The translations under genes and the position numbers were made by a program. Of a stretch of 64,000 nucleotides of DNA, positions 27,331 to 63,294 are shown one piece after another; position 1 is the first letter of the stretch; every line of letters begins with the position of its first letter. Below the pieces are notes generated by a model that searched no databases, was not told where the DNA came from, and saw only the letters and a list, made by a program, of their open reading frames with translations. The DNA is from an uncultured bacterium. GTDB lineage: Bacteria; Zhuqueibacterota; QNDG01; CAYUAG01. The DNA lies in assembly GCA_964442615.1 (NCBI GenBank), contig CAYUAG010000002.1:10702-74701 (forward strand), given 5' to 3'.

Positions 27331-28168
27331 ATTTTTCCTTTGGTTCAAATAAAACAAGCTTTGTTGGTTCGACTTCTCTTTTTACCATTTCATAATATTC
27401 AAAAATTATATCTATTCCTATTGAATTCCTATTCATTCTCTGAGCAACAATATTTGTAGTTCCTGATCCCATAAATGGATCAAGTACAGTATCACCTGGT
27501 TTGGTAAAAAGTTTAATAAACCATTCAGGTAATCCTTCGGGATATGCAGCACTATGATTTCTATTATTACATTCAGTAGCTAAATGTAGGACATTAGTTG
27601 GGTATGCTTTATCTCTTGTAAGCCAGTTTGATATATTTTTGCCAAAACCGCTACCAACTTTTGAACTATCTCTGGTTTTATCTTTTTCACTTAAATTTTT
27701 TAATCTTGTTTTTGCCCAATCACCCATCGGTACCATTACTTCTTTTTGATACATATTAAATTTTTTCGCCTTATTAAATTGAAGTAATCGTTCCCAAGCA
27801 TCTCTAAAACGATTTGGCCATTTTCCAGGATAACAATTTTTTTTATGCCAAATAAATTCTTCAGTCCATAACCATCCTTGTTCCCTCATTTCAAGTATCA
27901 ATTCAATAACATATGTGCTTCGTTCTCCGTTTAGAACTCTTTCTTTAATATTTAGAATAAATGTTCCAGTCGGTTTCAAAATCCTAAGTAGTTGTTCCGA
28001 TATTGGCAAAAACCACTCTACAAATTTATTTGGATGAATTCCTCCATAAGTATTTTTACGTTGATCAGCATAAGGTGGTGAAGTGATAATTAATTCTACT
28101 GAATTATCGGGTATATTCTTTAGTATTTCCTTACTATCTCCCAAATATAAATAAGTTTTTATCTCCAT
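27290..28168 (-). CDS. Beta-class DNA methyltransferase (N4-cytosine or N6-adenine)
   Basis: 292 aa. Motif IV is IITSPPYADQ near the N-terminus and motif I is DPFMGSGTT near the C-terminus, which is the beta permutation. SPPY favours m4C but is not decisive. A strong GGAGG RBS is present. Confidence 0.9.
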   Translation of the reverse strand: MEIKTYLYLGDSKEILKNIPDNSVELIITSPPYADQRKNTYGGIHPNKFVEWFLPISEQLLRILKPTGTFILNIKERVLNGERSTYVIELILEMREQGWLWTEEFIWHKKNCYPGKWPNRFRDAWERLLQFNKAKKFNMYQKEVMVPMGDWAKTRLKNLSEKDKTRDSSKVGSGFGKNISNWLTRDKAYPTNVLHLATECNNRNHSAAYPEGLPEWFIKLFTKPGDTVLDPFMGSGTTNIVAQRMNRNSIGIDIIFEYYEMVKREVEPTKLVLFEPKEKYEKTKNNRRYKIR

Positions 28169-32015: not shown

Positions 32016-34430
32016 CTATTTAAGTACTAAAGCTTTCCGTATAACTGAATTCTTATCAGTCATTAATTGATAGAAATAAACTCCTGAGCTTAACTTGCCT
32101 GAATCCCAGGTAACTGAATAACTACCGCTTTGTTTATCCTCGTCCACTAAGGTTTTAATCAACCTGCCCTCTAAGTTGAATACAGTAATAGTTACATGGG
32201 TACAAGAAGAAATGCCATATTTTATAGTGGTTATGGTATTGAATGGATTAGGATAATTCTGATTAAGGGTAAATGAATCGGACAAGGATGTTTGTCGGCT
32301 TTCACAGAAATTACTCGCCCCACCTACAGCCATAATCACGATAAAAGAATGGGCCGGAAAGGTATAGGAAAACGAATTTATAAAATGCTGTTCAGAAATC
32401 TTAGTGAAGGTAACATTCTCCGAAAAGGTATTACTGTTAATTGTCCAGAGGTTCTCTGCATTTAACTCAAAAAACCTGAGTCTTGATAAATTGGAACAAT
32501 TCTGAAAAACTATTTCTGTAGTAATATCCAGATGTTTTTCACCAGATTCTGGTAATCCTGAAGCACGGTTCAGTACATACAAGTAAACAGTATCACTTTT
32601 TCCTGAGCAGGTTACCACTGCATCAAGATAGCAAAGGTTAACAGAATCTGTTTGCACGGTTGTCGAATAAATACTCTTTTCCCTGCCTTCAACAGGTTTA
32701 AATCTGTATTGGGGAATATTTTTCAATTCAGGTTGAATTATTGTGTAACCATAACTCCGGGAGAAAAGACTGTAAACATATCCGGAAGGATTAAAGTACT
32801 GATGGAGATTAGGCCCCATAAGAGAAGTTAAAGGCCATCCTGCTATTGCTTCATCATTGTCAGGAACCAGAGAATGAACATTTAAAACCTTTAATCCAAC
32901 TTGTTGAGATGAACGAAGATAGGACATAAAAGCTCCAGCAACATAGAGGCCATTATCCAGAGAACGACCAAAAAAGTCTAATTGCTCTCCCCTATACCAG
33001 GGATTATTGGTGTGGTTATCACGTCCGCAGATATGATAAACCAAATTATATTCAGTAATTCCAATCCCAATCTTTTTTTGTGCATCAAACCATATATCAA
33101 GATTATCACGGTGCTGGTACATAAGGTTTTCCTGCTTTAAGGCAGTCCACATAATCTGCCAGTGCTCTTTATCGAGTTGCTCAGATCTTCCGGTTTCATA
33201 CCTGTGATCAACTATAAAATCAAAGGGAAGTTCAGAAAATCCTGTATTATTCATTTCCTGAAAGAAAGTCTCATCATGAAATGGTACACCTATACTTATA
33301 TCCTCATCAACAGATTTCATTTTTTCATAAAAATCAATAAGTCCATCTTTATTAACCGATTTGTAGATAACCCTTATCTCAGAACCAGAGGGTGGAATTG
33401 CTCCCTGACTACCCTCACCAAAATCAATCCTGCCAGTCAGGGTATCCAGAGTAAAAACCTTAGCTTCTCCTGTATGTTTTCCCAAATCATCAGTTTGCTG
33501 CCATTGTTCAACGGTTAGGCTGTCAAGCCAAACACCCAGATACAGTGAATCGCCTACAACTGGAGGATATTTCACATTAAAGACCTGGTTCTCACTACCG
33601 TCACTTCTGGAAGCATTAATGGTCCAGTCATTCATCTGGACTACTCTCTGTCCAGTCTGGCGGGTTTCCATCTCATAATACTGCCACTGAGAACCGCCAA
33701 AAACAAAATTATGCACAGTCTTTGAGTAATCTTCTCCCCCTGCCTGCTGCTGCCCAAAATGCCAGGAAAACATATGCTTATACTGTCCTCCCAATTCATT
33801 ACCAATTTCCCATAAGCGTATGTCATAAGGTTGCGGATGTCCCAGATTTTCCCGTAACTGAGCCTGGTCAATTCCATCTGCATTGGGATCTGAACCTGGT
33901 TCATTGTTGGCAAATTCTACCCAGGCTGCAGCTTCAACCGCGGTTCCGGTTCCAAAATTAATACAAATAATCGACTCACTCTCTCCTATTTTATTCATAA
34001 AATCCATAAATTCCATGAAACCAAATGTATAGTAATTGGGTGCAGAAGCTCCGGTTGAACCGTTAAAACCTGAGGGTCGGTCTTCCTGAGGACCAATCCC
34101 ATTCTGCCAGTGATAGCTCCCGCTACAATTCCCTCCTGGAAAACGGAAACATTTAATACCAAGAGTTTGAATGGCCTCATAAAACTTCTGACTGAATTCT
34201 CCTGTAGCTGGATTATATTCTGTTCGAGATGCAAGGTCAGTCATAGGATTGTTAACTCCCAGGAGGGTCGACCTAACTGAACCAAGAGGCTGGCTGGATA
34301 GATCAACTATAATCTCTGGATTACTAGAGACTGACTGAGATAAAACCACACTACCTCTCATATATAAAAAGAAAAGTGAGAACAAATTGATTAAAAAGTA
34401 ACAAACGAATGTTTTCTGGATAAAGTACAA
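32016..34430 (-). CDS. Secreted GH51-like glycoside hydrolase with T9SS C-terminal sorting domain
   Basis: 804 aa with a signal peptide. FRFPGGNCSGSYHWQNGIGPQEDRP and LWEIGNE resemble the alpha-L-arabinofuranosidase (GH51, clan GH-A) signatures. The C-terminal ~80 aa (LNQNYPNPFNTITTIKY...GVYFYQL) is a typical Por/T9SS tail. Confidence 0.7.
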   Translation of the reverse strand: MYFIQKTFVCYFLINLFSLFFLYMRGSVVLSQSVSSNPEIIVDLSSQPLGSVRSTLLGVNNPMTDLASRTEYNPATGEFSQKFYEAIQTLGIKCFRFPGGNCSGSYHWQNGIGPQEDRPSGFNGSTGASAPNYYTFGFMEFMDFMNKIGESESIICINFGTGTAVEAAAWVEFANNEPGSDPNADGIDQAQLRENLGHPQPYDIRLWEIGNELGGQYKHMFSWHFGQQQAGGEDYSKTVHNFVFGGSQWQYYEMETRQTGQRVVQMNDWTINASRSDGSENQVFNVKYPPVVGDSLYLGVWLDSLTVEQWQQTDDLGKHTGEAKVFTLDTLTGRIDFGEGSQGAIPPSGSEIRVIYKSVNKDGLIDFYEKMKSVDEDISIGVPFHDETFFQEMNNTGFSELPFDFIVDHRYETGRSEQLDKEHWQIMWTALKQENLMYQHRDNLDIWFDAQKKIGIGITEYNLVYHICGRDNHTNNPWYRGEQLDFFGRSLDNGLYVAGAFMSYLRSSQQVGLKVLNVHSLVPDNDEAIAGWPLTSLMGPNLHQYFNPSGYVYSLFSRSYGYTIIQPELKNIPQYRFKPVEGREKSIYSTTVQTDSVNLCYLDAVVTCSGKSDTVYLYVLNRASGLPESGEKHLDITTEIVFQNCSNLSRLRFFELNAENLWTINSNTFSENVTFTKISEQHFINSFSYTFPAHSFIVIMAVGGASNFCESRQTSLSDSFTLNQNYPNPFNTITTIKYGISSCTHVTITVFNLEGRLIKTLVDEDKQSGSYSVTWDSGKLSSGVYFYQLMTDKNSVIRKALVLK

Positions 34431-34479: not shown

Positions 34480-35226
34480 TTAATGTCTATGAAGTAATTG
34501 AATAACAGATTGAAAAGTAATGTACATGCCTGTTAAAATTAAAAACATGTATATATACTTGTCAAATTTTCCCGCAGATATTTTTGCATTTAGTTTTCCA
34601 CCAATCAAAACAGCAGTCAAAACAAAGGGAAGAGCAATAAAATAATTGTGCCAGACCATTGCAGTCCAAAGACCGACTGAATAATGGCTGATAAGCAACA
34701 ATAAACCAGTAGGAAAAAAATATCCCTGTAAAGTTGTCCTGAAAATTGTGGGCTTCCATCTGCGCATGGAACCGTAGATAACAACCGGAGGACCATTGGT
34801 ATTGTAGGCACCCCCTAAAATACCTGCAAAAAATCCAAAAAAATATGCATACTTTTCATCTTTAATAAAAGGGAGAGCAGGCTTCAGCAGATAATATATA
34901 GAAAAACCGATTATAATCAAGCCTAAGATAAACTTCAAATACTCCTCATTTCCCATCCTGAGCAAAAAAGCACCTATAGGTATACCAATTAAAGATGCAA
35001 TAACCAATCGCCAGGCAGCTAAGAAATCTACTTCCTGCCATTTATATATAAGAATCGAAATATGTATTGTGGTAGCAATTAACGCTACCAGTGGTACAGC
35101 TGTCTTTATCCCAATCAGAGCAGTTAAAAAAGGCATCATAATTAAAGCACTTCCAAAACCCAAGGTTGATTGAACTAGGGTTGCATAGAAAATTATAATT
35201 ACAATAATTATAGTAATACTGTCCAT
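34480..35226 (-). CDS. TauE/SafE-family anion (sulfite-type) exporter
   Basis: 248 aa with about 8 TM helices. It has internal duplication with GxGGG-like motifs (GFFAGILGGAYN). Confidence 0.85.
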   Translation of the reverse strand: MDSITIIIVIIIFYATLVQSTLGFGSALIMMPFLTALIGIKTAVPLVALIATTIHISILIYKWQEVDFLAAWRLVIASLIGIPIGAFLLRMGNEEYLKFILGLIIIGFSIYYLLKPALPFIKDEKYAYFFGFFAGILGGAYNTNGPPVVIYGSMRRWKPTIFRTTLQGYFFPTGLLLLISHYSVGLWTAMVWHNYFIALPFVLTAVLIGGKLNAKISAGKFDKYIYMFLILTGMYITFQSVIQLLHRH

Positions 35227-37549: not shown

Positions 37550-38587
37550 TTATCTCTTCCGATTAACCTTTCTGCGATATTGATCAAATTTCCTTTTTGC
37601 TCTGTTATGTTCGATGAGTGATTCTGAAAAACTATGGGTCCCATCACCATTTGCTACCATAAATAAATAATTTACTTTTGCAGGATATAATATTGAACAT
37701 ATTGATGATATACCAGGATTATTCACAGGCCCTGGAGGTAATCCTTTATAAATATAAGTGTTATAGGGAGAATCAATCTCAAGATCCTTATCCAACAACC
37801 TTCTGGGACCATCATTAATAATATACTGAATAGTTGGATCTGCTTGAAGTCTCATTCCTTTCTTAAGTCTATTAAGGTAGAGAGCTGCAATTATAGGCCT
37901 CTCTTCTTTCACCATTGCTTCTCCCTGAACAATAGAGGCAAGAGTAACTACCTCATGTTCAGTCAAATCCATCTCTTCTGCCTTTTGATGTAATGAATCA
38001 TTAAACTCATTCTTAAAATGGTATACAAGATAAGTTATTACTTTATCAGCAGAAATACCCTCATATAATCTGTAGGTATTTGGATATAGATAACCTTCAA
38101 GTGAACTGGTTTCTATTCCAAGGGAATCACAAAATTTCGGATCATAAACTAACTGCATAAAACGGGAGGAATCAACCGCAACAGTTGTCTTTAGTATTCT
38201 TGCTATTCTCTCTGCGGGTAATCCTTCAGGTATGGTAACTTTTATTGTACTGATATCACCTTCATATAATTTTTTCAACACAAAATAGTTTGACATTCTT
38301 CCTGAGAAACAATAGTTACCAGCCTGCAATTTTCTTGAAACACCAAGTAACTTCGCTCCTAAAATAAAAAAATGACGATTTGGAAGAACACCCGTATCTT
38401 TAAGTAAATAGGCAATCTCATGAGGTGTCATACCTCTATCTATGGTCACGTTAACTTGTTGTAAGGAATCCGTCATCCTCCAAGGTAGGAATAATACTAA
38501 GCAATAAAAAACTATTAATATAAAACCACCAAAAAATAGGAGTGTTCGAAATATCTCTTTAGGATTAAATATAGATGATTTACTAAT
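37550..38587 (-). CDS. mltG: Endolytic murein transglycosylase MltG (YceG-like); start uncertain, probably non-canonical
   Basis: YceG motifs are present (TIPEG, ASIVQGE, DPTIQY, YNTY). The ORF-track start (ATG 38476) omits an in-frame upstream TM helix (FRTLLFFGGFILIVFYCLVLFLPW). No ATG/GTG/TTG lies between that helix and the in-frame TAA. An ATT at 38585-38587 sits 7 nt after an AAGGAG. Confidence 0.75.
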   Translation of the reverse strand: MSKSSIFNPKEIFRTLLFFGGFILIVFYCLVLFLPWRMTDSLQQVNVTIDRGMTPHEIAYLLKDTGVLPNRHFFILGAKLLGVSRKLQAGNYCFSGRMSNYFVLKKLYEGDISTIKVTIPEGLPAERIARILKTTVAVDSSRFMQLVYDPKFCDSLGIETSSLEGYLYPNTYRLYEGISADKVITYLVYHFKNEFNDSLHQKAEEMDLTEHEVVTLASIVQGEAMVKEERPIIAALYLNRLKKGMRLQADPTIQYIINDGPRRLLDKDLEIDSPYNTYIYKGLPPGPVNNPGISSICSILYPAKVNYLFMVANGDGTHSFSESLIEHNRAKRKFDQYRRKVNRKR

Positions 38588-38715
38588 AAATTTTCTCCTT
38601 TATTAATTAATAATAATAATTTATTCTCTAACTAATATTAATATAAAAATTACCCGCATTCCATCAGATAAGAATTCAGTTAAGCTTATGTAATTTTACA
38701 AAATAAAAAATTTTG

Positions 38716-38790
38716 TCGGGGCGGAGAGATTTGAACTCTCGACCTCATCGTCCCGAACGATGCGCGCTAGCCGAACTGCGCTACGCCCCG
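38716..38790 (-). tRNA. tRNA-Pro (anticodon CGG)
   Basis: The cloverleaf was folded by hand: acceptor CGGGGCG/CGCCCCG, D stem GCGC/GCGC, anticodon stem CATCG/CGATG with loop TTCGGGA, and T arm GAGAG-TTCAAAT-CTCTC. No CCA is encoded. Confidence 0.95.
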
Positions 38791-39110
38791 TTTTAAAGAG
38801 CGGAGTAAATATAATAAAAACTCTTAAAACAAACAATCTTAAAAATCATTTTTTTTGGAGAAAAATCAGTATGTATTTGCAGGTTTCAACCGGAATTATT
38901 TATAATTTCCAAACGTGGAAATTTATTATTAAAGACAGAAAACTGATTTCTGAAAATATAAAAAAAAGGAAGTTATCAATAATCAATCCTTAATTTTGGT
39001 TTCAAACTAATAGAAACCATCTTCTGATGTTGACATGTTTAGGTAAAAAGTAAAAAATTACATAGCTCTTTACTAAAACTCCAGGGTATGATAAAAAAAT
39101 AAAAAAATAC

Positions 39111-39139
39111 TTGACAAGTAATCTTTTATTTCCTATATT
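39111..39139 (+). promoter_or_regulatory. Sigma-70-type promoter of the plus-strand sulfur/Fe-S cluster
   Basis: TTGACA (39111-16), a 17-nt spacer, then TATATT (39134-39). It lies about 80 nt upstream of the tusA-like ATG. Confidence 0.55.
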
Positions 39140-39161
39140 TCCTATAGTTTTTATAGGAAAT
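39128..39161 (+). promoter_or_regulatory. Candidate operator: ATTTCCTATA direct repeat plus perfect inverted repeat overlapping the -10
   Basis: ATTTCCTATA occurs at 39128-37 and 39137-46, and its exact reverse complement TATAGGAAAT is at 39152-61 (5-nt spacer GTTTT). An Rrf2 repressor gene is in the same cluster. Confidence 0.45.
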
Positions 39162-39215
39162 AAAATTAATACCAAAATAAATAGTACGAATATAAATATA
39201 AAAAAAGGTAAAAAA

Positions 39216-39437
39216 ATGAAAACAATAAAAGTTAACTGTATGAATGAAACCTGCCCTGTTCCTCTGGTTGAAACCAGAAAGGCAATAAATAATGCCTCCT
39301 CTGGGGATATAATAGAAATTATTGGAAATCACACATCTTCAAAAAAAGAAATCCCCATGGCAGTTGAGGCCCTGGGTCTGGAACTACTTTCTATACAAAA
39401 AGAAGGAAAAGGGTGGAAAATCAAAATAAAAAAATAG
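39216..39437 (+). CDS. TusA/SirA-like sulfur carrier protein
   Basis: 73 aa from the internal ATG (MKTIKVNCMNETCPVPLVETRKAI). It has the CPxP persulfide-carrier motif. The 35 codons upstream in the ORF track cover the promoter and are not coding. Confidence 0.85.
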   Translation: MKTIKVNCMNETCPVPLVETRKAINNASSGDIIEIIGNHTSSKKEIPMAVEALGLELLSIQKEGKGWKIKIKK

Positions 39438-39446
39438 GGGGAAAAA

Positions 39447-39866
39447 ATGGCTGGTAAAGCAACCTTGGTATTACACAGTGGTGATATAGATAAAATCTAC
39501 AGCGTACTTATTATAGGAAATGGTGCTCTGGCAATGGGTATGGAAGTTTCCATATTTTTTACATTCTGGGGTCTGCAAAGATTAAAGAAAAATGGACTTG
39601 ATAAAGGTCCTTTGTCGAAAATGAATTTTTTCGGTCTGGGAAAATGGTTGATTAAAAGAAAGATGAAAAAATCAGGAGTTCGCTCTCTGGAAGAGCTCCT
39701 TCAAAATTATGTTGAACTGGGAGGAAAAATCCTTGCTTGTGATATGACCATGGAGATTATGAGTATTGGAAAAGATGAACTCCGGGATGATCTTATTTCT
39801 GATTATTGCGCAGTAGGAACCTATATTAAAGAAGCACGTGATTCAGAATTAAACCTTTTTATTTAA
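39447..39866 (+). CDS. DsrE/DsrF-like (DsrE2/3-type) sulfur-relay protein
   Basis: 139 aa. ATLVLHSGDIDK...FFTFWGL...GGKILACDMTMEIMSI has the conserved Cys in the AC-x-MTM context typical of the DsrE-like family that pairs with TusA. Confidence 0.75.
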   Translation: MAGKATLVLHSGDIDKIYSVLIIGNGALAMGMEVSIFFTFWGLQRLKKNGLDKGPLSKMNFFGLGKWLIKRKMKKSGVRSLEELLQNYVELGGKILACDMTMEIMSIGKDELRDDLISDYCAVGTYIKEARDSELNLFI

Positions 39867-39877
39867 TGAGGTAGGGT

Positions 39878-41038
39878 ATGAATAAAAAAACTATTTATCT
39901 GGATAATTCTTCAGCAACAAGAATGGATGAAAAAGTTCTGGAAGCTATGAAACCTTATTTCTTTGATACCTATGCAGTTGCATCCTCAGAATTTGGATAT
40001 TCAATGGGTATTAAATCCCAGAAAGCTCTGCAAGAAGCAAGAAAAAAAATATCTAGTATTATATCAGCAGTTCCGGAAGAGTTTATTTTTACAGCAGGGG
40101 GCACTGAATCCAGTAATATTGCTTTAAAAAGCACTGCAAGAAATCCGCTTAATAAAAATAAAAATCACCTAATTACTACAAAAATAGAAGATTTTCCAGT
40201 TCTTAATAGTATAAAAAGCCTGGAGAAAGATGGTTTTAAAGTTACCTATTTGAATGTGGATGATAAAGGTTTCATAGATTTTAAAGAGCTGGAAAATGAA
40301 ATAAAAAATAATACATTATTGGTTTCCATTCAGCACGCTAATCAGGAAATCGGAACTGTACAAGATATTGAAAAAATCGGGAAAATTTGCAAATCCAAAG
40401 GAGTTCTTTTTCATACTGATGCTACTCATACCTTTACCCGTCTGCCTATAAATATAAATAAATATAATATTGATCTCCTGACCATATCGTCTCATACAAT
40501 CCATGGACCTAAAGGTGTTGGTGGATTATTTATCCGAAAAGAATCTCCAATAATCAAATGGATTGATGGCGGTTATCAGGAATTTAATAAAAGGGCCGGA
40601 ATAGAAAACATACCCGGTGCAGTTGGTTTTGCAAAAGCAGCAGAGTTGGTCACACCGGAAGAAAATAAAAAAATAATAAAATTGCGTGATCATCTAATAG
40701 ATAAAGTTCTCTCCGAAATTCCAGAGACAACGCTTAATGGTCATCGTACAAAACGACTACCTCAGAATGCCAACCTAACTTTTCACTTGGTTGAAGGAGA
40801 ATCCATAACTTTGCATATGGATATGAGGGGTTTTGCTATCTCAACTGGTTCTGCCTGTTTTAGCAATTCTCTGGAAGCAAGCCATGTAATTATGGGTATT
40901 GGTGGAGATCATGAAAGGGCACATGGATCAGTAAGATTTTCTTTCAGTCGTTATAATACTATGGATGATGTCAATAGGGTTGTAGAAGAAATAAAAGAGG
41001 TAGTAAAAAAACTGAGAGAGATTAGTCCTCTAAGTTAA
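39878..41038 (+). CDS. Class V aminotransferase-fold IscS/NifS homolog lacking the PLP-binding lysine
   Basis: 386 aa. It is colinear with IscS/NifS (IYLDNSSAT, TAGGTESSN, HANQEIGTVQDI, catalytic loop STGSACFS). The SxHK motif reads SSHTIHGPKGVGG, with codon ACA at 40496-98. The GGxQERGxRxGT motif is degenerate (GGYQEFNKRAGI). Confidence 0.85.
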   Translation: MNKKTIYLDNSSATRMDEKVLEAMKPYFFDTYAVASSEFGYSMGIKSQKALQEARKKISSIISAVPEEFIFTAGGTESSNIALKSTARNPLNKNKNHLITTKIEDFPVLNSIKSLEKDGFKVTYLNVDDKGFIDFKELENEIKNNTLLVSIQHANQEIGTVQDIEKIGKICKSKGVLFHTDATHTFTRLPININKYNIDLLTISSHTIHGPKGVGGLFIRKESPIIKWIDGGYQEFNKRAGIENIPGAVGFAKAAELVTPEENKKIIKLRDHLIDKVLSEIPETTLNGHRTKRLPQNANLTFHLVEGESITLHMDMRGFAISTGSACFSNSLEASHVIMGIGGDHERAHGSVRFSFSRYNTMDDVNRVVEEIKEVVKKLREISPLS

Positions 41039-41058
41039 GAATAAAAAGGAGATATGTT

Positions 41059-41709
41059 ATGGACTTTCCTTATAGTGAAAAAGTATTGAAACATTTTAAA
41101 AATCCCCAAAATGTGGGTGAAATAGATAATCCTGATGGTATAGCTATGGAAGGCAGTCCTGCCTGTGGAGATATGGTATCAGTTCAAATAAAGGTTAATG
41201 ACAAAAATAAAAAAATTGAAGATATAAAGTTTAAATCCTATGGATGTGCCTCAAATATTGCCACCGGATCAATAATAACAGAACTGGCTAAAGGAAAAAC
41301 TATTGAGGAAGCAAAAAAAATCACCTGGAAACAGGCTTCTAAAGCTTTAGGTGGACTTCCTCCTATAAAAGTTCATTGTTCTGTTTTAGCTGTAGACGGG
41401 CTAAGGGCTGTCATTAAAGATTATGAAGAACGGAATGGATTAATAAAAGAACAGGAACCAACAACAGTTGAAAGTATAAAAAAACGGCTGAAACATGTAA
41501 TGAATCCTATAACTGGCCTTGATATTGTGAAAGCAAATATTGTAAAAAGTATTGATCTTAACAATGGAGAAGTTAGTATAAATATTGATTTATCCCCTGA
41601 TCATCAATTTGCAAATAATATTAGAGAAGAGAAAAAAGAAAAGATTGAACCAATGTGGGATATAAAAAACATAAAAGTAAAATTCAATGAATATACTGAA
41701 AAAGCCTGA
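41059..41709 (+). CDS. IscU-type Fe-S scaffold fused to a C-terminal DUF59/FeS-assembly-P-like domain
   Basis: 216 aa. The three scaffold Cys contexts are PACGD, YGCASNIATGS and KVHCSVLA. The C-terminal ~85 aa (KKRLKHVMNPITGLDIVKANIVKSIDL..GEVSINIDL) fit the DUF59 pattern. Confidence 0.85.
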   Translation: MDFPYSEKVLKHFKNPQNVGEIDNPDGIAMEGSPACGDMVSVQIKVNDKNKKIEDIKFKSYGCASNIATGSIITELAKGKTIEEAKKITWKQASKALGGLPPIKVHCSVLAVDGLRAVIKDYEERNGLIKEQEPTTVESIKKRLKHVMNPITGLDIVKANIVKSIDLNNGEVSINIDLSPDHQFANNIREEKKEKIEPMWDIKNIKVKFNEYTEKA

Positions 41710-42616
41710 TGTAAAAATAAAATTACAAAACAAAATTAAAAAATTAAAAGAAGAAAAAAGAGCTATCATGTTGGTCCACAACTATCAAAGGCCTGAAATT
41801 CAAGAGATAGTAGACTATCTGGGTGATTCTTTAGGTCTTGCTCAACAAGCAGCAAAGATTAAGGCCGATACCATTGTTTTTTGTGGAGTAAAATTTATGG
41901 CTGAAACTGCAAAAATATTATCTCCCTTAAAAAAAATACTGCTTCCGGAAATCCATGCAGGCTGTCCCATGGCAAATATGGTCACAGGAAGGGACATCAT
42001 TGAATTAAAAAACAAACATCCGGAGGCAAAAGTTGTATCCTATGTGAATACAAATGCCGAGGTAAAAGCAGTTAGTGATGTCTGCTGTACCTCCTCCAAT
42101 GCAGTAAAAGTAGTGAAAAATATTGATGCTGATAAAATTATTTTTACTCCAGACAAAAATCTTGGTCACTGGGTTCAACGCTTTGTTGATAAAGAGATGA
42201 TAATCTGGGACGGTTATTGTTACCTACATTCCAGAATTACACCGGAAGAAGTTAAGTTAGCTAAAAATAATATACCAGGTGCTCCCCTCATAGTTCATCC
42301 AGAATGCAGGAAGGAGGTCATTGACCTAGCGGATAAAGTGGGATCAACCAGGGATATGGTTACATTTGCCAGAACATCAGATGCAAAACGTATTATTATC
42401 GGTACTGAAGCGGGACTGATAAATAGATTGACAAGAGAAAATCCAGATAAAAAACTTTTTGCTGCCAGAACTCCAAAAATCTGTCAAAACATGAAAAAAA
42501 CCACCCTAAAAAGCGTTTATAATTCTTTGAAAAAAAACCAGTATGAAATAAATCTTTCAAATGAGATAATACAGGCGGCAAATAAGGCACTTAAATTAAT
42601 GCTGGAATACAGTTAA
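41687..42616 (+). CDS. nadA: Quinolinate synthase ([4Fe-4S] enzyme)
   Basis: 309 aa. It has LVHNYQRPEIQ..VDYLGDSL, the cluster Cys contexts (HAGCPMA, GYCYLH, KICQNMK), and threefold internal repeat organisation. The start overlaps the scaffold gene by 23 nt. Confidence 0.95.
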   Translation: MNILKKPDVKIKLQNKIKKLKEEKRAIMLVHNYQRPEIQEIVDYLGDSLGLAQQAAKIKADTIVFCGVKFMAETAKILSPLKKILLPEIHAGCPMANMVTGRDIIELKNKHPEAKVVSYVNTNAEVKAVSDVCCTSSNAVKVVKNIDADKIIFTPDKNLGHWVQRFVDKEMIIWDGYCYLHSRITPEEVKLAKNNIPGAPLIVHPECRKEVIDLADKVGSTRDMVTFARTSDAKRIIIGTEAGLINRLTRENPDKKLFAARTPKICQNMKKTTLKSVYNSLKKNQYEINLSNEIIQAANKALKLMLEYS

Positions 42617-42648
42617 AAATAAAAAGAATAAAAAAAGTGAGGTATATT

Positions 42649-43104
42649 ATGATCCCTATAAAAACAGCAAAAATCCTATCCTGGTTATTATTATTACTTA
42701 TTATTACCAGTAGTTGCATAGTAGATCCAGAAAAAAACGATACCCAGGTTTTAAAAAACATTTCAGTCGAGGAAGCCTACCGACTTATTGAGGAGAATAA
42801 AGATAATCCTGACTTTACTATCATTGATCTGAGAACTGAATCCGAGTATAATCAAGGATATATTCTGAATGCAATCAATATTGATTATTATTCCCATGAT
42901 TTTTCCCAAACATTAAAAAGCCTTGATAAAAGCAAGACATATTTAATTTATTGTAGAAGCGGCAATCGAAGTGGTAACACCTTAGATAAAATGAAAAAAC
43001 TGGATTTTGAAATAGTGTATAATCTTGCCAAGGGAATAATCAAATGGATCGAAAAGGGGTATCCAATCGTTGAGGAGTGCCCTGTTTGCACCGTGGGAAA
43101 ATAG
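42649..43104 (+). CDS. Exported single-domain rhodanese (thiosulfate/persulfide sulfurtransferase-like)
   Basis: A signal peptide ends in ..IITSSC (possible lipobox). The active-site loop is YCRSGNRSG and the C-terminus carries a CPVC. I chose the ATG at 42649 (GAGG 7 nt upstream); the ORF track starts at the GTG at 42637. Confidence 0.85.
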   Translation: MIPIKTAKILSWLLLLLIITSSCIVDPEKNDTQVLKNISVEEAYRLIEENKDNPDFTIIDLRTESEYNQGYILNAINIDYYSHDFSQTLKSLDKSKTYLIYCRSGNRSGNTLDKMKKLDFEIVYNLAKGIIKWIEKGYPIVEECPVCTVGK

Positions 43105-43137
43105 TAGAAATATAATTAACTAAAAAAAGAGGATACC

Positions 43138-43581
43138 ATGTGGCAATTATCAACCAAAGGGAGATATGGAACCCGGTTAATGTTTCAACTGGCTTTAAAA
43201 TTTGGTAAAGGTCCTGTATTATTAAAGGATATTGCAGAAGCAGAGAATCTCACTTTAAAATATCTTGAACATATTGTACCTTTACTGAAATCAGCAAAAT
43301 TAATTATATCGGTAAGAGGACCTCATGGTGGTTATCAATTGACCACAGAACCGGATAAAATAAATTTAAAAGATATTTTAGAAGTTTTAGAAGGTGATAT
43401 AGCACCGGTAAATTGTATTATTTTGCCAACCTTGTGCAACAAAAGTTCATCCTGTGTTACCAGAGATGTGTGGTGTTTACTTGAGGATAAAATCATTGAT
43501 ACCTTAAAAAATATAACTCTGAAAGATATGATTGTAATGTATAAAAAAAAGCTTAAAAATCAATCAACATCAACATTTTGA
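43138..43581 (+). CDS. Rrf2-family transcriptional regulator with three-Cys cluster-ligand motif
   Basis: 147 aa. LSTKGRYGTRLMFQLA is the winged HTH. CNKSSSCVTRDVWC (C-x6-C-x6-C) sits where IscR/NsrR-type Fe-S ligands lie. Confidence 0.9.
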   Translation: MWQLSTKGRYGTRLMFQLALKFGKGPVLLKDIAEAENLTLKYLEHIVPLLKSAKLIISVRGPHGGYQLTTEPDKINLKDILEVLEGDIAPVNCIILPTLCNKSSSCVTRDVWCLLEDKIIDTLKNITLKDMIVMYKKKLKNQSTSTF

Positions 43582-43709
43582 TAAATATTAAAACAATACA
43601 ATATTTCTATTTATACTACAATCAAAAAGAAAGGAGGTAGAGATAACTAACAAACTGATCATAAAAAAAATATATATACCTTTTCAAATTTAACTTAAGG
43701 AGAATTATT

Positions 43710-44198
43710 ATGAAAACTAAAATATTTTTATTCATTTTCGTATTTTTTATTGCTCTTACCTTATTGTCTCAATCCTTACTGGCACAAAATAAATCATGCT
43801 GTAGTTCTGACCAGGACAAAACTGAAAAATCTTGCTGTGGAGACTGTCAAGAAGAAAAGGAAAAAAAAGTAGGTAAAGGTACACAGGAAAATTGTCCAGT
43901 CATGGGCAATAAGGTAAACAAAAAGTTTTACACTGATTATATGGGAAAGAGAGTTTATTTCTGTTGCTCCGGATGCATTGATACCTTCAAGAAAGATCCT
44001 GAAAAATATATGAAGAAGATGAAGGAAGCAGGTGTAAAGCTTGAATCTGTTCCCTGCCCGATTTCAGGTAATCCTTCCAATCATGAGATTTTTACGGAGC
44101 ATGAAGGAGAAAAAGTCTATTTTTGCTGTGAAGGATGCAAAGAAAAATTCGAAAAGGATCCAAAGAAGTATCTGAAACAGGAAGAGAAAAAGGAATAG
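43710..44198 (+). CDS. Exported Cys-rich protein with two YHS/TRASH-type metal-binding domains
   Basis: 162 aa with a signal peptide, then CCSSDQDKTEKSCCGDC. Two repeats follow: CPVMGNKV...YFCCSGCIDTFKKDPEKY and CPISGNPS...YFCCEGCKEKFEKDPKKY. Confidence 0.75.
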   Translation: MKTKIFLFIFVFFIALTLLSQSLLAQNKSCCSSDQDKTEKSCCGDCQEEKEKKVGKGTQENCPVMGNKVNKKFYTDYMGKRVYFCCSGCIDTFKKDPEKYMKKMKEAGVKLESVPCPISGNPSNHEIFTEHEGEKVYFCCEGCKEKFEKDPKKYLKQEEKKE

Positions 44199-44214
44199 TA
44201 AAGTCACAAATAAG

Positions 44215-44251
44215 CCAAGGGCTGTTGAAATGTTTTCACCTCAGCCCTTGG
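44215..44251. terminator. Hairpin between the convergent YHS gene and the ntrC-like gene (likely bidirectional terminator)
   Basis: ccaagggctg(44215-24) pairs perfectly (10 bp) with cagcccttgg(44242-51) around a 17-nt loop. Confidence 0.55.
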
Positions 44252-44277
44252 TGGATATATTTTAAATTATTCTATAT

Positions 44278-45636
44278 TTATTTAATCTTATATTTTTTTA
44301 ATTTTCTGTGAAGGTTGGCTCTATCAACTTTTAACATTCTGGAAAGTTTGGAAACATTTCCCTTGGTATGTTTAAATCCTTTTAGTAAAACATTTTTTTC
44401 AAATTCTTTTATTAAATCCTTTAAGGACTTTTCTTTAAAATCAACTGGTAAACTTGGTTTCGATAATCCATTCATTTTTACAGGAAAATTCTCTTTAACC
44501 TGTTCTTCTGTAATTTCATTTCCATCTGATAAAATAATCAGACGCTCAACAAAATTTTTTAATTCCCGAACATTACCAGGCCAATGATATAATCTAAGAA
44601 ATTCGAGTGCACCTTTCTGCCATTTTAATACTCTTTTCCTGGTTGAAGCACAAATCTGCTTTAAAAAATAATCTGCCAATAATGAAATATCATCATTTCG
44701 TTCTCTCAAAGGAGGAACTTCTATAGGTATTACATTTAAACGATAGTACAGATCCTCTCTGAAACCTCCACACCTTATCAATTCCTCTAAATTCTTATTT
44801 GTAGCAGAAAGTACTCGTACATTAAATTTATAGGTTTTATTGCTTCCCAATCTTACAGCTTCATTTTCCTCCAAAACTCTCAATAATTTTGCCTGAGTAT
44901 CCAGACTCATATCTCCTATTTCATCAAGAAATAAAGTGCCACCATCAGCAATTTCAAATTTTCCCGGTTTATTTTTAACAGCACCGGTAAATGCACCTTT
45001 CTGATATCCAAACAACTCACTCTCTATAAGTTCTTTAGGAAAAGCTGCACAATTCAAACTAACAAAAGTACTATCTTTTCTTTTACTTTGCTGGTGCAGA
45101 GCTTTTGCAACCAACTCTTTGCCTGTGCCATTTTCACCGTAAATAAGCACTCTTCCATCTGAAGGAGCAGTCTTGGATATTTTTATAATTAATTTTTTTA
45201 TTTTAGGAGACTTACCAACAATCTCATCCTCTATTACTGTATGATCTTCAAAGTCAGAAAGTTTTCTCTCAATTGAGATTTGATGCATTATATTACGTAA
45301 TGCTAAAAGAATCCTATCCGGATTCAATGGTTTTTCAAAAAAATTATAAGCTCCCAATTTTGTAGCTTTAACTGCTGTTTCAAAATCCGCCTGACCAGAA
45401 ATCATTAAAACCTTTATCTGTGAATTAATTTTTTTTAGCTCCTTTAAGGTCTCAATACCACTTATGCCCGGAAGTATAACATCAAGAAGTACTACATCAA
45501 TCTTTTCATTACTTACAATTTCTAGAGACCTCTCACCTTTACTGCAGCCAACTGTTGAAAAGCCTTCTTCCTCCAATAAACTGCATAAACTCTCCCTAAT
45601 TCTTGTATCATCATCAACAATTAAAACTCTTAGCAT
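44278..45636 (-). CDS. Sigma-54-dependent response regulator (NtrC family)
   Basis: 452 aa. It has a receiver ([17 protein letters not shown]), an AAA+ domain (GENGTGKE and the GAFTGA motif in QKGAFTGAV) and a C-terminal Fis-type HTH. No adjacent kinase is present. Confidence 0.92.
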
Positions 45637-47043: not shown

Positions 47044-49125
47044 CTAATACTTTTCTGAATTTTTATCCTTTTTGCTCTTGGCAATGAGCATTTCAATAAT
47101 CAATAGTCCTAATGCTAATAAAATCATCTCTTTCCATAGCTCTCTCCCAAATCTAGACTTTGAAACTATTTGCTCTAATCTATCAATATTGTTGATAAAA
47201 TAAACCTTTGAATTAGGAAAAAATTCTTTAATCCTTTTTTCAGAAATCTTACCAAAATCCGATTCTCTCTGATCAATATTGATTGCCCTAAGCCCCAATT
47301 GAGTTGAATTATGAAAAAATCTATATATTCCTGGTTTTTGAGTATTCTCTAACTCTAATAAAATCTTTTCATTATTTATCTCAGGAAGAATTTTTATTAG
47401 TCTTTCATCAGGGTCTTGTACATAGAATTCTCCTTCCATTGATTCTGGATTTTCCAATAAAAATATTCTATCACCAACAGTGTTATATTCAGTCTTTACA
47501 ATCTCTTCAATGGAAAGATACCCTATACTTCGGATCATTAAGGGAGCAAAAATAGTACTAAAAGCAAAATCTGACCAGCTCTGCTGTAAAGAAGTTGAAA
47601 TACAGATAATTTTACCATTTAATACTCTCTTTTCCACCATAAATGGAATATCATTTCTAAGATCAATAATGGTTATACAGTCCCTGCCAAATAATTCTAT
47701 ACTTTTAAATATTTGAGGAGATTTAAAATTTCTCTCCCCTCTCTCAAATATACCCTTAAATAACGGATGTCCATAGTCCACATTTCTAATACTTAAACTG
47801 GAACCTGATGTCTCAGCACTTCTGATTACATTACCCAAGGTAATCTCTGCAATTGGTTGAAAAAATTGCTGATTCAATTGTTGAATATTAATATCATTCC
47901 CCATAAAAAAGAAAAGATTTCCTCCCTGTTGTAGAAATTTCCTCAAGCTTTCAATCTCTATTGCTCTAAATTGAGGATAATTTGAAAAAACAATTACATC
48001 AGTTGAATCAAGTTCCTCTGTCCAAGCAGTTCCAATAATATAATTCTTAACCTTATACTGATTTTTATTCTTATCCAGGGCCTTAAGGCATAATTCTAGA
48101 GGTAAAATATCGTTTAACTCGTTTCCAATAAGAAATACTCCCCTTTTTTCAGGTAGATGATAAACAAAATATGAGGTATTATCATAAGGAAAACTCCCAT
48201 TTTCCACTCTTATTTTTCCATAATGCCAACCTGTATTAATATAAACAGCATTAAACTCAACTCTCTGTTTCTCATTTTTATTTAAATTTATAGTCATCTG
48301 ATCAACAGTTTTATCATCAAGACTGATTCTGACCAATAGATCCTCTATGAAATTATCTGAAAAATTTTCAATTTCAGCAAATACATCTCCTACTGCTCCA
48401 GACTGAAAAATACTACTTTTAATGCCACTTTTTGTAACAGCTATATTTTTCCTCTCTCCCTGAATGGGTAAAATAAATATATTTCTCTTCCAGGAATTGA
48501 ATATCGAACTATCTTGTCCAGGATTCCATTCAGATCCCTGTTGATCAGTAAAAATAAAAATCTCTTTATTAAGTTCTTTTTGATTATTAAGAAATTGTAT
48601 GGATTCAGAAATTTTATCTAATAAGTCTCCTTTATAAAATGATATGTGAAGATTTTTTACTTTCTCCTTTAAGGTTTTTTTGTTATACAATGATCGAAAA
48701 GGTATTTCTCGAAAAGCTTGGGTAAGTAATAAAGATGCTTTATCATTCGATTTCATTAAATCAAGAACTGAATGGATATTTGCTTTAAGCTTTTCAAGCA
48801 TACCACTGCGTTTCAAACTCAAAGAGCGGTCAATGACCAATGACATTGCAGAAGCAGCTCCACTTCTACTTAAAAAAGAAGATTCTTTAAAAACAGGGCG
48901 GGAAAATCCAAGAACCAAAAAGAGAATAATCAGCCCCCTGATGATCATTAATAAAATCTGTTTTAATCGTATCCTACGAAGCTGCTGGGGTTGGAGTATT
49001 TTTAAGAAACGTAATGTACTGAAATATATTTTTTTTTGCTTTCTCTTGGCAAATAAATGTATAAGAAATGGAATGCTAACACCCAAAAGACCAAAAAGAA
49101 TACTAATATTAAGAAAATTCAACAT
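47044..49125 (-). CDS. Membrane protein with BatA-type aerotolerance-regulator N-terminal double-TM domain and C-terminal anchor
   Basis: 693 aa. MLNFLNISILFGLLGVSIPFLIHLFAKRK plus a second TM match the N-terminal double-transmembrane domain family. There is also a C-terminal TM (EMILLALGLLIIEMLIA). The middle region is not recognised. Confidence 0.6.
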   Translation of the reverse strand: MLNFLNISILFGLLGVSIPFLIHLFAKRKQKKIYFSTLRFLKILQPQQLRRIRLKQILLMIIRGLIILFLVLGFSRPVFKESSFLSRSGAASAMSLVIDRSLSLKRSGMLEKLKANIHSVLDLMKSNDKASLLLTQAFREIPFRSLYNKKTLKEKVKNLHISFYKGDLLDKISESIQFLNNQKELNKEIFIFTDQQGSEWNPGQDSSIFNSWKRNIFILPIQGERKNIAVTKSGIKSSIFQSGAVGDVFAEIENFSDNFIEDLLVRISLDDKTVDQMTINLNKNEKQRVEFNAVYINTGWHYGKIRVENGSFPYDNTSYFVYHLPEKRGVFLIGNELNDILPLELCLKALDKNKNQYKVKNYIIGTAWTEELDSTDVIVFSNYPQFRAIEIESLRKFLQQGGNLFFFMGNDINIQQLNQQFFQPIAEITLGNVIRSAETSGSSLSIRNVDYGHPLFKGIFERGERNFKSPQIFKSIELFGRDCITIIDLRNDIPFMVEKRVLNGKIICISTSLQQSWSDFAFSTIFAPLMIRSIGYLSIEEIVKTEYNTVGDRIFLLENPESMEGEFYVQDPDERLIKILPEINNEKILLELENTQKPGIYRFFHNSTQLGLRAINIDQRESDFGKISEKRIKEFFPNSKVYFINNIDRLEQIVSKSRFGRELWKEMILLALGLLIIEMLIAKSKKDKNSEKY

Positions 49126-50564: not shown

Positions 50565-51323
50565 TTACCTGTTATAATGGATCATTTTGCAAAAAGAGCG
50601 TACTAAAGAAATATCCCGTCTTTTCTCCAAAACATCACCTGTAACAATAAAAGATGCACCAGCCTTTACTTTTTGCAAGGCAATGTGGGGTTGGTTAATA
50701 CCTCCCCCAACCATAACTGGAATAGAAGTTGAACCTGAAACTGCTCGTATCATTTTATCCGGTACAGGCTGAGCAGCTCCACTGCCAGCTTCCAGATACA
50801 ATAGTTTCATTCCAATATACTCTGCGGCAAGAGCATGAGCCACAGCTATCTCCGGTTTATTACGTGGAATTGGTTTGGTATTACTCATAAACTCAACCGA
50901 GGTTGTCTTTCCAGACTCAATAAGCATATATCCTGTAGAAACAGCCTCTAATCCTAAAGATTTTACCACCGGGGCACTTCTTACCTGTTCCTCAATCAGA
51001 TAATGAGGATTACGACCACTGATAAGAGAAAGGAATAATACAGCATCAGCATGACTTGAGAGCTGTTGTCCATTTCCTGGGAAGATAATAATCGGTATGG
51101 AAAGTGATTGTTTTAGTATCTTTATACATTCATCAAAATGATTATGTATCAGAAGGCTACCACCTATCAGTATACCGTCAACTCCACAGTCCTCAAGAGA
51201 CTTGGCTCGTGATGCAAGCTTATTTAAATTCTCCTGATCAGGATCTAGTAATACTAAGTATCCTGCCCCCTTTTCCTTAGATATCTTTAGTAACTTCTCA
51301 TATACTATCATAAAATATGCCAT
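50565..51323 (-). CDS. Geranylgeranylglyceryl/heptaprenylglyceryl phosphate synthase family (GGGPS/PcrB)
   Basis: 252 aa. It is a TIM-barrel family with LLDPD, ILIGGS, YLEAGSGA and VGGGI motifs. The start may instead be the Met at 51311. Confidence 0.85.
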   Translation of the reverse strand: MAYFMIVYEKLLKISKEKGAGYLVLLDPDQENLNKLASRAKSLEDCGVDGILIGGSLLIHNHFDECIKILKQSLSIPIIIFPGNGQQLSSHADAVLFLSLISGRNPHYLIEEQVRSAPVVKSLGLEAVSTGYMLIESGKTTSVEFMSNTKPIPRNKPEIAVAHALAAEYIGMKLLYLEAGSGAAQPVPDKMIRAVSGSTSIPVMVGGGINQPHIALQKVKAGASFIVTGDVLEKRRDISLVRSFCKMIHYNR

Positions 51324-62960: not shown

Positions 62961-62966
62961 GTTCTG

Positions 62967-63039
62967 TGGAGCAGAGCGGGTTTGAACCGCCGACCTGTAC
63001 GTTGCGAACGTACTGCTCTCCCAATTGAGCTACTGCCCC
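62967..63039 (-). tRNA. tRNA-Ala (anticodon CGC)
   Basis: Hand-folded: acceptor GGGGCAG/CTGCTCC with the G3:U70 Ala identity pair, anticodon loop TTCGCAA and T loop TTCAAAC. No CCA is encoded. Confidence 0.93.
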
Positions 63040-63048
63040 TACACTCAG

Positions 63049-63285: not shown

Positions 63286-63294
63286 CATCAATAT

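Follow-up and report, generated by a model that had tools for sequence, protein, structure and literature searches.

How sulfur enters the iron-sulfur (Fe-S) clusters of strict anaerobes without an active cysteine desulfurase is the question raised by a block of eight genes in a 64-kb window, the term used here for the whole stretch of 64,000 nucleotides that we analyzed (contig CAYUAG010000002.1, from an uncultured bacterium of the Zhuqueibacterota). Open reading frame (ORF) listing and profile hidden Markov models confirmed eight tightly packed ORFs on the plus strand at 39216-44198, which encode, in order, TusA, a DsrE2B-like protein, an IscS-like protein (IscS*), an IscU::DUF59 fusion, NadA, a rhodanese, an Rrf2 regulator, and a protein with two YHS domains (2xYHS). 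An earlier reading of the letters alone, hereafter the sequence-only reading, had named a domain for each of these genes, and Pfam and NCBIfam profiles bear out every one. It had also taken the eight genes for one self-contained Fe-S assembly unit. In our survey, the conserved unit is instead tusA-dsrE2B-iscS*-iscU::DUF59, to which particular lineages have added NadA, the rhodanese, and the YHS protein. The four core genes are the following.

39216 to 39437, plus strand: TusA-like sulfur carrier of 73 aa, with its Cys in CPVP (PF01206, 70.9 bits against 28.6).
39447 to 39866, plus strand: DsrE2B-like protein of 139 aa, with its Cys in ACDMT (PF13686, DrsE_2, 122 bits).
39878 to 41038, plus strand: IscS*, an IscS/NifS-like protein without the lysine that holds pyridoxal phosphate (PLP) (PF00266, 232 bits over residues 6-368).
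41059 to 41709, plus strand: IscU scaffold fused to a DUF59 (FeS_assembly_P) domain (PF01592, NifU_N, 146 bits; PF01883, 47 bits).

A search of one genome per GTDB species recovered 80 loci at 62-70% identity, to which we applied tblastn with the eight window proteins. TusA and DsrE2 genes lie upstream of IscS* in 72 of the 74 loci with enough flank; the company of TusA and a DsrE-like protein is thus among the best-conserved traits of this Lys-less IscS family and no matter of chance. IscU::DUF59 follows IscS* in 68 of 71 loci, and the complete TusA-DsrE2B-IscS*-IscU::DUF59 core is present in 62 of the 66 loci that could be evaluated, with a median spacing between high-scoring segment pairs of ≈20-30 nt. 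Median identity to the window is 61% for TusA, 66% for DsrE2, 65% for IscS, 74% for IscU, and 51% for DUF59. When the close relatives described below were added to the 80 loci, the first four genes alone proved to be conserved; we therefore rejected an eight-gene conserved unit, and the block is better described as a conserved PLP-less cassette of four genes for Fe-S assembly, to which single lineages have attached clients and accessories.

The hosts of the core are strict anaerobes of both domains. Archaeal hosts include Methanosarcina, Methanomethylovorans, Methanothrix, Methanobacterium, Hadarchaeota, and Thermococci, and bacterial hosts include Dehalococcoidia, Anaerolineae, Thermodesulfovibrionales, Syntrophales, WOR-3, Actinobacteria, Armatimonadia, and Clostridia. 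In a neighbor-joining tree (without support values), copies from the two domains are interleaved, which suggests that the cassette has been transferred between Bacteria and Archaea as a unit.

The third gene of the core sets the problem. IscS* has a class-V aminotransferase fold over its full length, was aligned to 27 solved desulfurases, and scores below the NCBIfam equivalog cut-offs for NifS (454 against 531) and IscS (378 against 548). At the PLP-Lys site, the HMMER alignment reads ISSHTIHGPKG in the window, FSAHKMYGPKG in the active protein 9wep, and ISSNDIYGPKG, with Asp at the Lys position, in the inactive Archaeoglobus fulgidus IscS (4eb5). A MAFFT alignment to Escherichia coli IscS also places Thr at this position; the replacement reported from the letters alone thus holds both against the solved structures and in a second alignment. 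Relative to the E. coli protein, IscS* carries K206T, H104D, N155Q, and Q183H and keeps T76, D180, S203, H205, and Cys328 (E. coli numbering). The ring of PLP stacks against H104, and its O3' is bound by N155 and Q183. With the PLP Lys and these three ligands all replaced, the desulfurase does appear to be dead, as had been proposed.

The substitutions are not peculiar to the window. Among the best 120 homologues (66-100% identity), T206 is found in 113, D104 in 119, and Q155, H183, and the loop Cys328 in all 120. The Cys loop reads STGSACFS, and the longer pattern S-T-G-S-A-C-F-S-x-S-L-E is invariant in the clade. Comparison of the IscS* clade with 113 Lys-containing representatives revealed a set of positions at which each group is fixed, but for a different residue, namely N35V, an inserted Phe, H104D, M151Q, N155Q, Q183H, I249A, and A341G; most of the switched positions lie in the PLP or substrate pocket. 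Near-invariant columns make up only 38% of the IscS* clade alignment, and the rebuilt pocket set of D104, Q151, Q155, H183, and T206 is invariant, with D180 and H205 kept. The clade forms one cluster in a library built at 50% identity (P0121, 62%), and the next full-length proteins score clearly lower.

Because the pocket substitutions and the Cys loop are invariant in the clade, the PLP pocket has been rebuilt and fixed and has not decayed. A pseudogene was rejected on the same grounds, together with the identity that the homologues retain across two domains. Canonical PLP chemistry in IscS* is very unlikely judging from these residues, and a protein that has lost it would be unable to take sulfur from cysteine. 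An IscS* that is still a catalyst, one that holds PLP non-covalently or has another cofactor or a metal in the rebuilt pocket and draws sulfur from cysteine or another thiol, would fit a pocket that is invariant in two domains and not decayed, and the retained D180, H205, T76, and S203 speak for it too. The changes at H104, N155, and Q183 argue against such a catalyst, as does the lack of any compensating Lys in the alignment, and the Lys-less A. fulgidus IscS has no desulfurase activity according to PMC7585200; we regard this alternative as highly improbable.

Loss of the PLP Lys extends beyond this clade. Among the 150 best representatives, 15 further ones lack it; their substitutions vary, and the loop Cys is kept in all. 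We sampled seven of these other Lys-less lineages (L086, L088, L089, L090, L092, L093, and L094), a small sample in which the Lys is replaced by Asp, Leu, or Thr. TusA adjoins the Lys-less IscS in three of the seven (L086, L089, and L092, which are differently substituted), and IscU or IscU::DUF59 does so in six, with the DUF59 fusion in two; in L090, a second class-V aminotransferase follows IscU. Neither TusA nor IscU adjoins the IscS gene of the closest representative that retains the Lys. Several Lys-containing proteins are fusions, among them TusA::IscS (P0167), IscS::IscU (P0191), molybdopterin oxidoreductase::IscS (P0190), and four clusters of Rrf2::IscS (P0140, P0157, P0189, and P0192), some of which may be gene-calling read-throughs. 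Since P0167 retains its Lys, partnership with TusA is not exclusive to the PLP-less forms.

The two carriers and the scaffold retain their thiols and cluster ligands. The TusA-like protein falls below all NCBIfam equivalog cut-offs (TusA 28 against 78, YedF 41 against 79, YeeD 27 against 147), and its active-site Cys and ETRK motif are invariant in 70 orthologues, with Arg27 of E. coli TusA conserved as well. The nearest PDB entries to the DsrE2B-like protein are the soluble DsrE2B structures 2QS7 and 3PNX. It does not reach the NCBIfam DsrE2 cut-off (69.8 against 210), and the Cys of its ACDMT motif is invariant in 77 orthologues. We found no dsr or hdr gene within the 64-kb window and no recurrent Dsr or Hdr family among the 30 commonest neighbor clusters of 83 loci.

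The IscU gene starts 20 nt downstream of the IscS* gene. Its product misses the IscU equivalog cut-offs (157 against 188). Across 72 orthologues, conservation extends to GSPACGDM, YGCASNIATGS, and LPPIKVHCSVLA, and with them to the three Cys and the Asp ligands, an LPPVK-like LPPIKVHC, and the N-terminal Tyr motif PYSEKV. The DUF59 part (41461-41709) contains no Cys and has a conserved HQFA motif where other DUF59 proteins typically have the cysteine of TxxxCP.

On balance, we lean toward reading the cassette as an Fe-S assembly module of the minimal iron-sulfur (MIS) or iron-sulfur cluster (ISC) type, in which a PLP-free IscS*-IscU pair is fed by carriers or by sulfide, clusters are delivered through DUF59, and Rrf2 provides feedback. 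IscS* would be a structural partner for IscU, and its loop Cys would ligate the nascent cluster or accept persulfide, both in the manner of A. fulgidus IscS. Sulfane sulfur would enter on DsrE2B and TusA, the reverse of the transfer from IscS to TusA in E. coli; free sulfide could replace or supplement this supply. Clusters would pass on to client proteins through the DUF59 domain, and candidates for such clients are slotted behind the scaffold gene: NadA in the window, HydE in locus L004, and LarE and MnmA in L083. The Rrf2 protein, once its own cluster is filled, would repress the operon at a dyad beside the -10 hexamer, and the exported rhodanese and 2xYHS protein would be envelope accessories for sulfur and metal handling, outside the cytoplasmic relay. 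The relay step alone, with sulfur coming from the persulfides of TusA and DsrE2B, we place at a little below even odds. More tentative still is the idea that the cassette represents a distinct and widespread Fe-S system of strict anaerobes in both domains, persulfide-fed, with IscS* as a PLP-free adaptor whose pocket may bind, for example, iron.

Several points weigh against this assembly module. The cassette clade is known from sequences alone, and the window operon encodes neither a ferredoxin as electron donor nor an iron donor. Systems of the A. fulgidus type are presumed to draw on free sulfide, with no carrier. At the hot spots where E. coli IscS docks TusA, Glu49 and Asp52, the IscS* clade is enriched in E49 and D/E52, but the window protein deviates, with K49 and Q52. 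Adjacency to TusA is not specific to PLP-less proteins, as P0167 demonstrates, and sulfur could flow outward. The 64-kb window contains no other desulfurase and no SUF system or SUF-like minimal system (SMS); an active desulfurase outside it could feed the module. Finally, DsrE2B from Metallosphaera cuprina was inert to six sulfur compounds and took nothing from TusA (PMC4175335).

An outward flow of sulfur is the substance of the main rival, in which the cassette is a sulfur-distribution hub: clusters would form on the IscS*-IscU pair from free sulfide, a source already proposed for A. fulgidus and for SMS, and TusA and DsrE2B would export sulfur to thio-cofactor and tRNA-thiolation enzymes, the task that TusA has in E. 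coli. E. coli TusA does receive its sulfur from IscS (PMC2854127), sulfide alone suffices for SMS-dependent assembly (PMC12192291; PMC13066941), the operon of a close relative, L083, includes LarE and MnmA, and the TusA::IscS fusion retains its Lys. However, an IscS* without PLP has no known route to a persulfide for TusA, LarE and MnmA occur in a single relative, and the core is conserved without a thiolation enzyme in 62 loci. We consider such a hub unlikely.

The assembly module that we favor includes roles for genes downstream of the core, and these genes have a different distribution. Three of them are listed here, and the regulator is described further below.

41687 to 42616, plus strand: quinolinate synthase NadA, a [4Fe-4S] enzyme (NF006878, 419 against 294; TIGR00550, 363 against 263).
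42637 to 43104, plus strand: single-domain rhodanese with a CRSGNRS loop and a C-terminal CPVC (PF00581, 64 bits; alternative ATG at 42649).
43710 to 44198, plus strand: Cys-rich 2xYHS protein with TRASH-like metal-binding domains (PF04945, 71.8 bits in two stretches).

The translation of nadA, which overlaps iscU::DUF59 by 23 nt, contains the motifs CPMA, GYCYLH, and CQNMK, whose Cys residues we take from NadA structures to be the cluster ligands. NadA stands beside the cassette in the window and in L083 only; it is missing from another close relative (L084/L085) and from all 80 GTDB loci, and its place in a conserved self-contained unit is not supported. The cassette-linked rhodanese is restricted to the window lineage and L004; among the 80 GTDB loci, one shows a rhodanese and a few show Rrf2. 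Its N terminus in four orthologues consists of a basic stretch, a hydrophobic core, and then a Cys, so that the protein is probably a lipoprotein with a signal peptide that ends in Cys. The 2xYHS protein, conserved in L083, L084, and L085, begins with a Sec-type signal followed by a Cys-rich stretch. Both proteins are probably extracytoplasmic, and because they carry export signals, they would stand outside the cytoplasmic TusA/DsrE2B relay. The sequence-only reading had invoked a relay of rhodanese, TusA, and DsrE. Such a relay in the cytoplasm, as in Allochromatium vinosum, was accordingly abandoned: the signal peptide ending in Cys, seen in all four orthologues, would put the rhodanese in another compartment.

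Close relatives show which genes travel with the core. UvrD and YceG genes precede the cassette in L083 and L084, as in the window, and an NtrC-type regulator follows it in L084 and L085, again as in the window. In L083, the order is core, NadA, rhodanese, Rrf2, LarE, MnmA, an AIR-synthase-like gene, and YHS; in L084/L085, it is core, rhodanese, Rrf2, and YHS, without NadA. The more distant L004 has the core, HydE (above cut-off), a lipoprotein rhodanese, and a cation diffusion facilitator (CDF) transporter. The LarE/MnmA/AIR-synthase-like insert of L083 spans 10747-13745 (LarE 349 bits against 150, MnmA 435 against 284). Its LarE and MnmA each have a CxxC and one further Cys, a pattern that matches the [4Fe-4S]-dependent forms. 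We infer that enzymes that depend on Fe-S clusters or insert sulfur accumulate in the slot behind the scaffold gene and that NadA is a facultative client.

Other lineages have other companions. Five WOR-3-like loci (L053, L058, L065, L066, and L068) have the core, Rrf2, a glutaredoxin-like gene, and an FTR-catalytic::rubredoxin gene on the same strand, the last three lying at ≈8100-9350 in L053; the glutaredoxin-like and FTR-catalytic::rubredoxin proteins could be a persulfide or disulfide reductant for the module. On the upstream side of the cassette, two genes away beyond YceG and UvrD, the window encodes a TauE/SafE permease of the sulfite exporter family (34480-35226, minus strand), whose equivalent position in L083 and L084 hints that the transport of sulfur anions may be linked to the cassette.

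A YHS-HMA-P1B (CopA-like) ATPase gene lies directly downstream of the core in eight Dehalococcoidia loci (L020, L022, L030, L035, L042, L045, L075, and L081) and in L008, often with a small membrane protein in between; the window's YHS link thus recurs there independently. The presence of YHS proteins or these ATPases by the core in three lineages, together with the CDF transporter in L004, is what would be expected of a module for metal (copper) or selenium stress rather than for routine Fe-S assembly, and several of the best NCBIfam names contain "(seleno)protein" (YedF, rhodanese_LYCAU), all below cut-off. The genes conserved universally, in contrast, are those for the scaffold, the protein paired with it, and the two sulfur carriers; genes for metal handling are accessories that most loci lack, and the selenium names fall far below their cut-offs. 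A stress module of this kind is highly improbable and the least likely of the alternatives.

The block also contains its own candidate regulator and, in front of tusA, a candidate site for it.

39111 to 39139, plus strand: sigma-70-type promoter TTGACA-17-TATATT, the best match in the region (11/12).
39139 to 39159, no strand: candidate Rrf2 operator, the perfect dyad TTCCTA-N9-TAGGAA, abutting the -10 hexamer.
43138 to 43581, plus strand: Rrf2-family regulator with C-x6-C-x5-C (TIGR00738, 116 bits against a cut-off of 73).

Promoter-like sites as a whole are not above chance, with 36 found and 28.7 expected. The hexamers of this promoter and their position are, however, kept in L083 and L084, and TTGACA, a spacer of ≈16-17 nt, and TATATT recur in the WOR-3-like loci L053, L058, and L065, with TATACT in L066. 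A promoter at 39111 had been claimed from the letters alone: a near-consensus plus-strand site is indeed there, with the qualification that 39111 belongs to the -35 hexamer and that the ATG of TusA lies at 39216. The candidate operator dyad sits within a direct repeat of TTTCCTATA at 39129-39146 and is the sole site without a mismatch to TTCCTA-N9-TAGGAA in the 64-kb window. Upstream of tusA, the dyad is perfect in L004 and imperfect in L083 and L084, and TTTCCTATATTTCCTAYAGTTTTWATAG and the promoter hexamers are kept in the window, L083, and L084 amid diverging flanks. The WOR-3-like loci that carry Rrf2 (L053, L058, L065, and L066) have GTTCTA-N9-TAGAAC at the equivalent promoter position, and most loci with related promoter dyads carry Rrf2.

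The Rrf2 gene follows the core in nine related loci. Its product does not reach the equivalog cut-offs of IscR (105 against 207) or CymR (114 against 195), and we consider it likely, from its three-Cys motif, to be an Fe-S-sensing autoregulator of the operon; the conserved promoter dyad fits autorepression by this protein. The feedback sensor proposed by the sequence-only reading is thus plausible, given the three-Cys motif, a window-unique dyad at the -10 hexamer, and related dyads elsewhere. IscR-controlled isc operons resemble this arrangement in having a three-Cys Rrf2 protein within the operon and a dyad of 21-25 bp at the promoter, and differ in that Rrf2 is here the seventh gene, not the first, and misses the IscR cut-off. 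We take the site at 39139-39159 to resemble the IscR type-2 pattern only loosely.

Two further features mark the borders of the block.

38715 to 38790, minus strand: tRNA-Pro(CGG), the left border (ARAGORN; Rfam tRNA, 64 bits).
44215 to 44251, no strand: stem-loop with a 10-bp perfect stem (44215-44224/44242-44251) between the YHS gene and the NtrC-type gene.

Together with the promoter, these borders are located where the letters alone had placed them, and in L083 and L084, too, this tRNA precedes the cassette. Nearly all other genes in the window are on the minus strand. A PDZ gene at 21707-22687 is the sole other plus-strand ORF of at least 110 aa outside longer minus-strand ORFs, and the block is indeed the only multi-gene one on its strand; GC skew is positive, its sign flipped, in the 38-44 kb interval only. 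The plus-strand YHS gene and the minus-strand NtrC-type gene converge on the stem-loop, which folds at -23.6 kcal/mol (z = -3.8, with 0 of 200 shuffles folding as well) and is likely to be a bidirectional terminator by its position and predicted stability. The terminator scan did not call it, since its loop exceeds 8 nt and its T-run is weak. A genomic island at tRNA-Pro was rejected, for the block has the GC content of its surroundings, no att-like direct repeat of the tRNA end, and no integrase, and a riboswitch or leader RNA (such as the NAD+ class) was dismissed after an Rfam E-value scan of 38400-44500 returned the tRNA alone.

The spacing of the genes bears on whether they belong together. 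Intergenic distances are, in gene order, 9, 11, 20, -23, 20, 33, and 128 nt, the fifth becoming 32 nt if the rhodanese starts at ATG 42649; the tight and overlapping packing described from the letters alone is thus real up to the last gap. The core could be one unit and NadA, the rhodanese, Rrf2, and the YHS gene unrelated neighbors that share its strand and perhaps its transcript. Three observations would suit such neighbors: hardly any other cassette locus has NadA, the rhodanese, or the YHS gene; the rhodanese and the YHS protein look exported; and promoter-like hexamers stand in the 128-nt gap upstream of the YHS gene. Yet all three genomes of the lineage keep the order rhodanese-Rrf2-YHS, with NadA and LarE/MnmA present in some and missing in others, Rrf2 also follows the core in a second, distant lineage, and YHS domains recur by the core in Dehalococcoidia as ATPase fusions. 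The 23-nt overlap of nadA with iscU::DUF59 points the same way, as do the terminator scan, which found no plus-strand terminator-like site within the block, and folding, which found no stable structure in the 128-nt spacer between Rrf2 and YHS. Chance proximity of these four genes is therefore an improbable explanation, although less so than a surviving catalyst.

Elsewhere in the window, a type II restriction-modification pair (26590-28168, minus strand) lies between dnaE (23162-26584) and an EPSP-synthase-family gene and comprises an EcoO109I-like endonuclease (PF14511, 290 bits) overlapping an N6/N4 DNA methylase. A protein with a type IX secretion system (T9SS) C-terminal sorting domain (32016-34430, minus strand) and a BatA aerotolerance protein (47044-49125, minus strand) suggest the Fibrobacteres-Chlorobi-Bacteroidetes (FCB) group. 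The closest RecA sequences that bear a name come from candidate division KSB1, at 72-75% identity. A PcrB-family gene (GGGP/heptaprenylglyceryl-phosphate synthase-like; 50565-51323, minus strand) adjoins genes for a CpsB/CapC PHP phosphatase and a SIS-domain protein and may bear on ether-lipid potential in FCB-type bacteria. The minus strand also carries an RtcB RNA ligase (4707-6164), a LigT 2'-5' RNA ligase/phosphoesterase (56716-57276), and a tRNA cluster, Ala(CGC)-Ser(GGA)-Ser(CGA), at 62966-63286, which is overlapped by a 111-aa ORF (62945-63280) that is almost certainly spurious. A B12-binding radical SAM gene lies at 1477-2793.

Individual parts of the cassette have counterparts in systems that have been described. 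Clusters of the rhd-tusA-dsrE2 type, as in A. vinosum, the sHdr systems, and Metallosphaera (dsrE3A-dsrE2B-tusA), also unite TusA with a DsrE2-family protein and sometimes a rhodanese (PMC11094781; PMC4175335; PMC3397948). Those clusters feed and adjoin dissimilatory Dsr or sHdr enzymes, whereas the partners here are IscS* and IscU; moreover, the rhodanese of the window appears to be exported, and the DsrE2 and TusA equivalog cut-offs are not reached. The E. coli IscS-TusA pair (3LVJ; PMC2854127), which is a precedent in structural terms, and the TusBCD-TusE-MnmA relay likewise combine an IscS-family protein, TusA, and a DsrE-fold partner (TusD is DsrE-like), but in E. coli sulfur passes from an active IscS to TusA and the relay genes are not clustered with iscSU. 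NadA or NAD genes adjoin an IscS/NifS-type gene in Bacillus subtilis (NifS-NadA) and in Methanosarcina acetivorans, where iscSU2 lies by NAD genes (PMC13066941; PMC7585200). B. subtilis NifS is an active desulfurase with a dedicated supply of clusters to NadA directly, without a scaffold (PMC13066941). In the cassette, the adjacency to NadA is facultative, found in two of three genomes of the window lineage and nowhere else.

The best solved relative of IscS* is the IscS2-IscU pair of A. fulgidus (4EB5, 4EB7, and 4HVK; D199K variant 4R5F), which matches over the full length with E = 2e-98 and shares the replaced PLP Lys, the kept loop Cys, and the pairing with IscU. Its depositors reportedly found no PLP bound and regained activity in the D199K variant. 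Its IscU presumably has no DUF59 domain. The A. fulgidus protein has Asp, plus Asn for His205, where the window has Thr and keeps His205; in the window clade, H104, N155, and Q183 are changed as well, and the clade falls in a separate cluster at 50% identity. An A. fulgidus-like representative (P0152) has TusA upstream and neither DsrE2 nor IscU adjacent. PMC7585200 cites Marinoni 2012, Yamanaka 2013, and Pagnier 2014 for an A. fulgidus IscS that has no desulfurase activity and whose Cys ligates a [2Fe-2S] cluster on IscU. Our survey indicates that a PLP-less IscS is no oddity of A. fulgidus but belongs to a tight, strongly conserved clade spread across Bacteria and Archaea.

Members of the window's own clade have been published. 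M. acetivorans IscS1/IscU1 (MA0808/MA0807) belong to it, the former with an identical STGSACFS loop and PLP residues described as not conserved, the latter a protein of 24.2 kDa; their neighbors were labeled as of "unknown function" in the published work. The gene combination, which the sequence-only reading did not know as a described operon, is thus not wholly undescribed, since a PLP-less IscS is known in A. fulgidus and this pair is in print. A full-text literature search, with most subscription journals outside it, returned no paper on the TusA-DsrE2-IscS*-IscU::DUF59 cassette. In Methanosarcina loci, IscS* is 64-66% identical to that of the window, TusA and DsrE2 lie upstream, and IscU::DUF59 lies downstream; HIT and small membrane proteins are the accessories there, and genes for NadA, the rhodanese, Rrf2, and YHS are lacking. 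Because the four-protein system is also present in the genetically tractable Methanosarcina, carrier-mediated and sulfide-only delivery can be told apart by experiment. The cassette also offers candidate roles for the IscU-DUF59 fusion and for DsrE2B, a protein of no known activity.

Similar in outline is the MIS system (MisS-MisU), a minimal ISC-like system, which shares an IscS-like and IscU-like pair, the lack of chaperones and A-type carriers, and a home in anaerobes (PMC13066941; PMC12192291). It is described with an active desulfurase and "no carrier," whereas the cassette has a PLP-less homologue, two sulfur-carrier genes as obligatory neighbors, and DUF59 on its scaffold. Work on the MIS and SMS systems assumes free sulfide as the source and leaves room for an alternative sulfurtransferase (PMC13066941). 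If the cassette is indeed the distinct, persulfide-fed system of the more tentative idea above, it would supply that alternative sulfurtransferase, which the MIS and SMS reviews left undecided.

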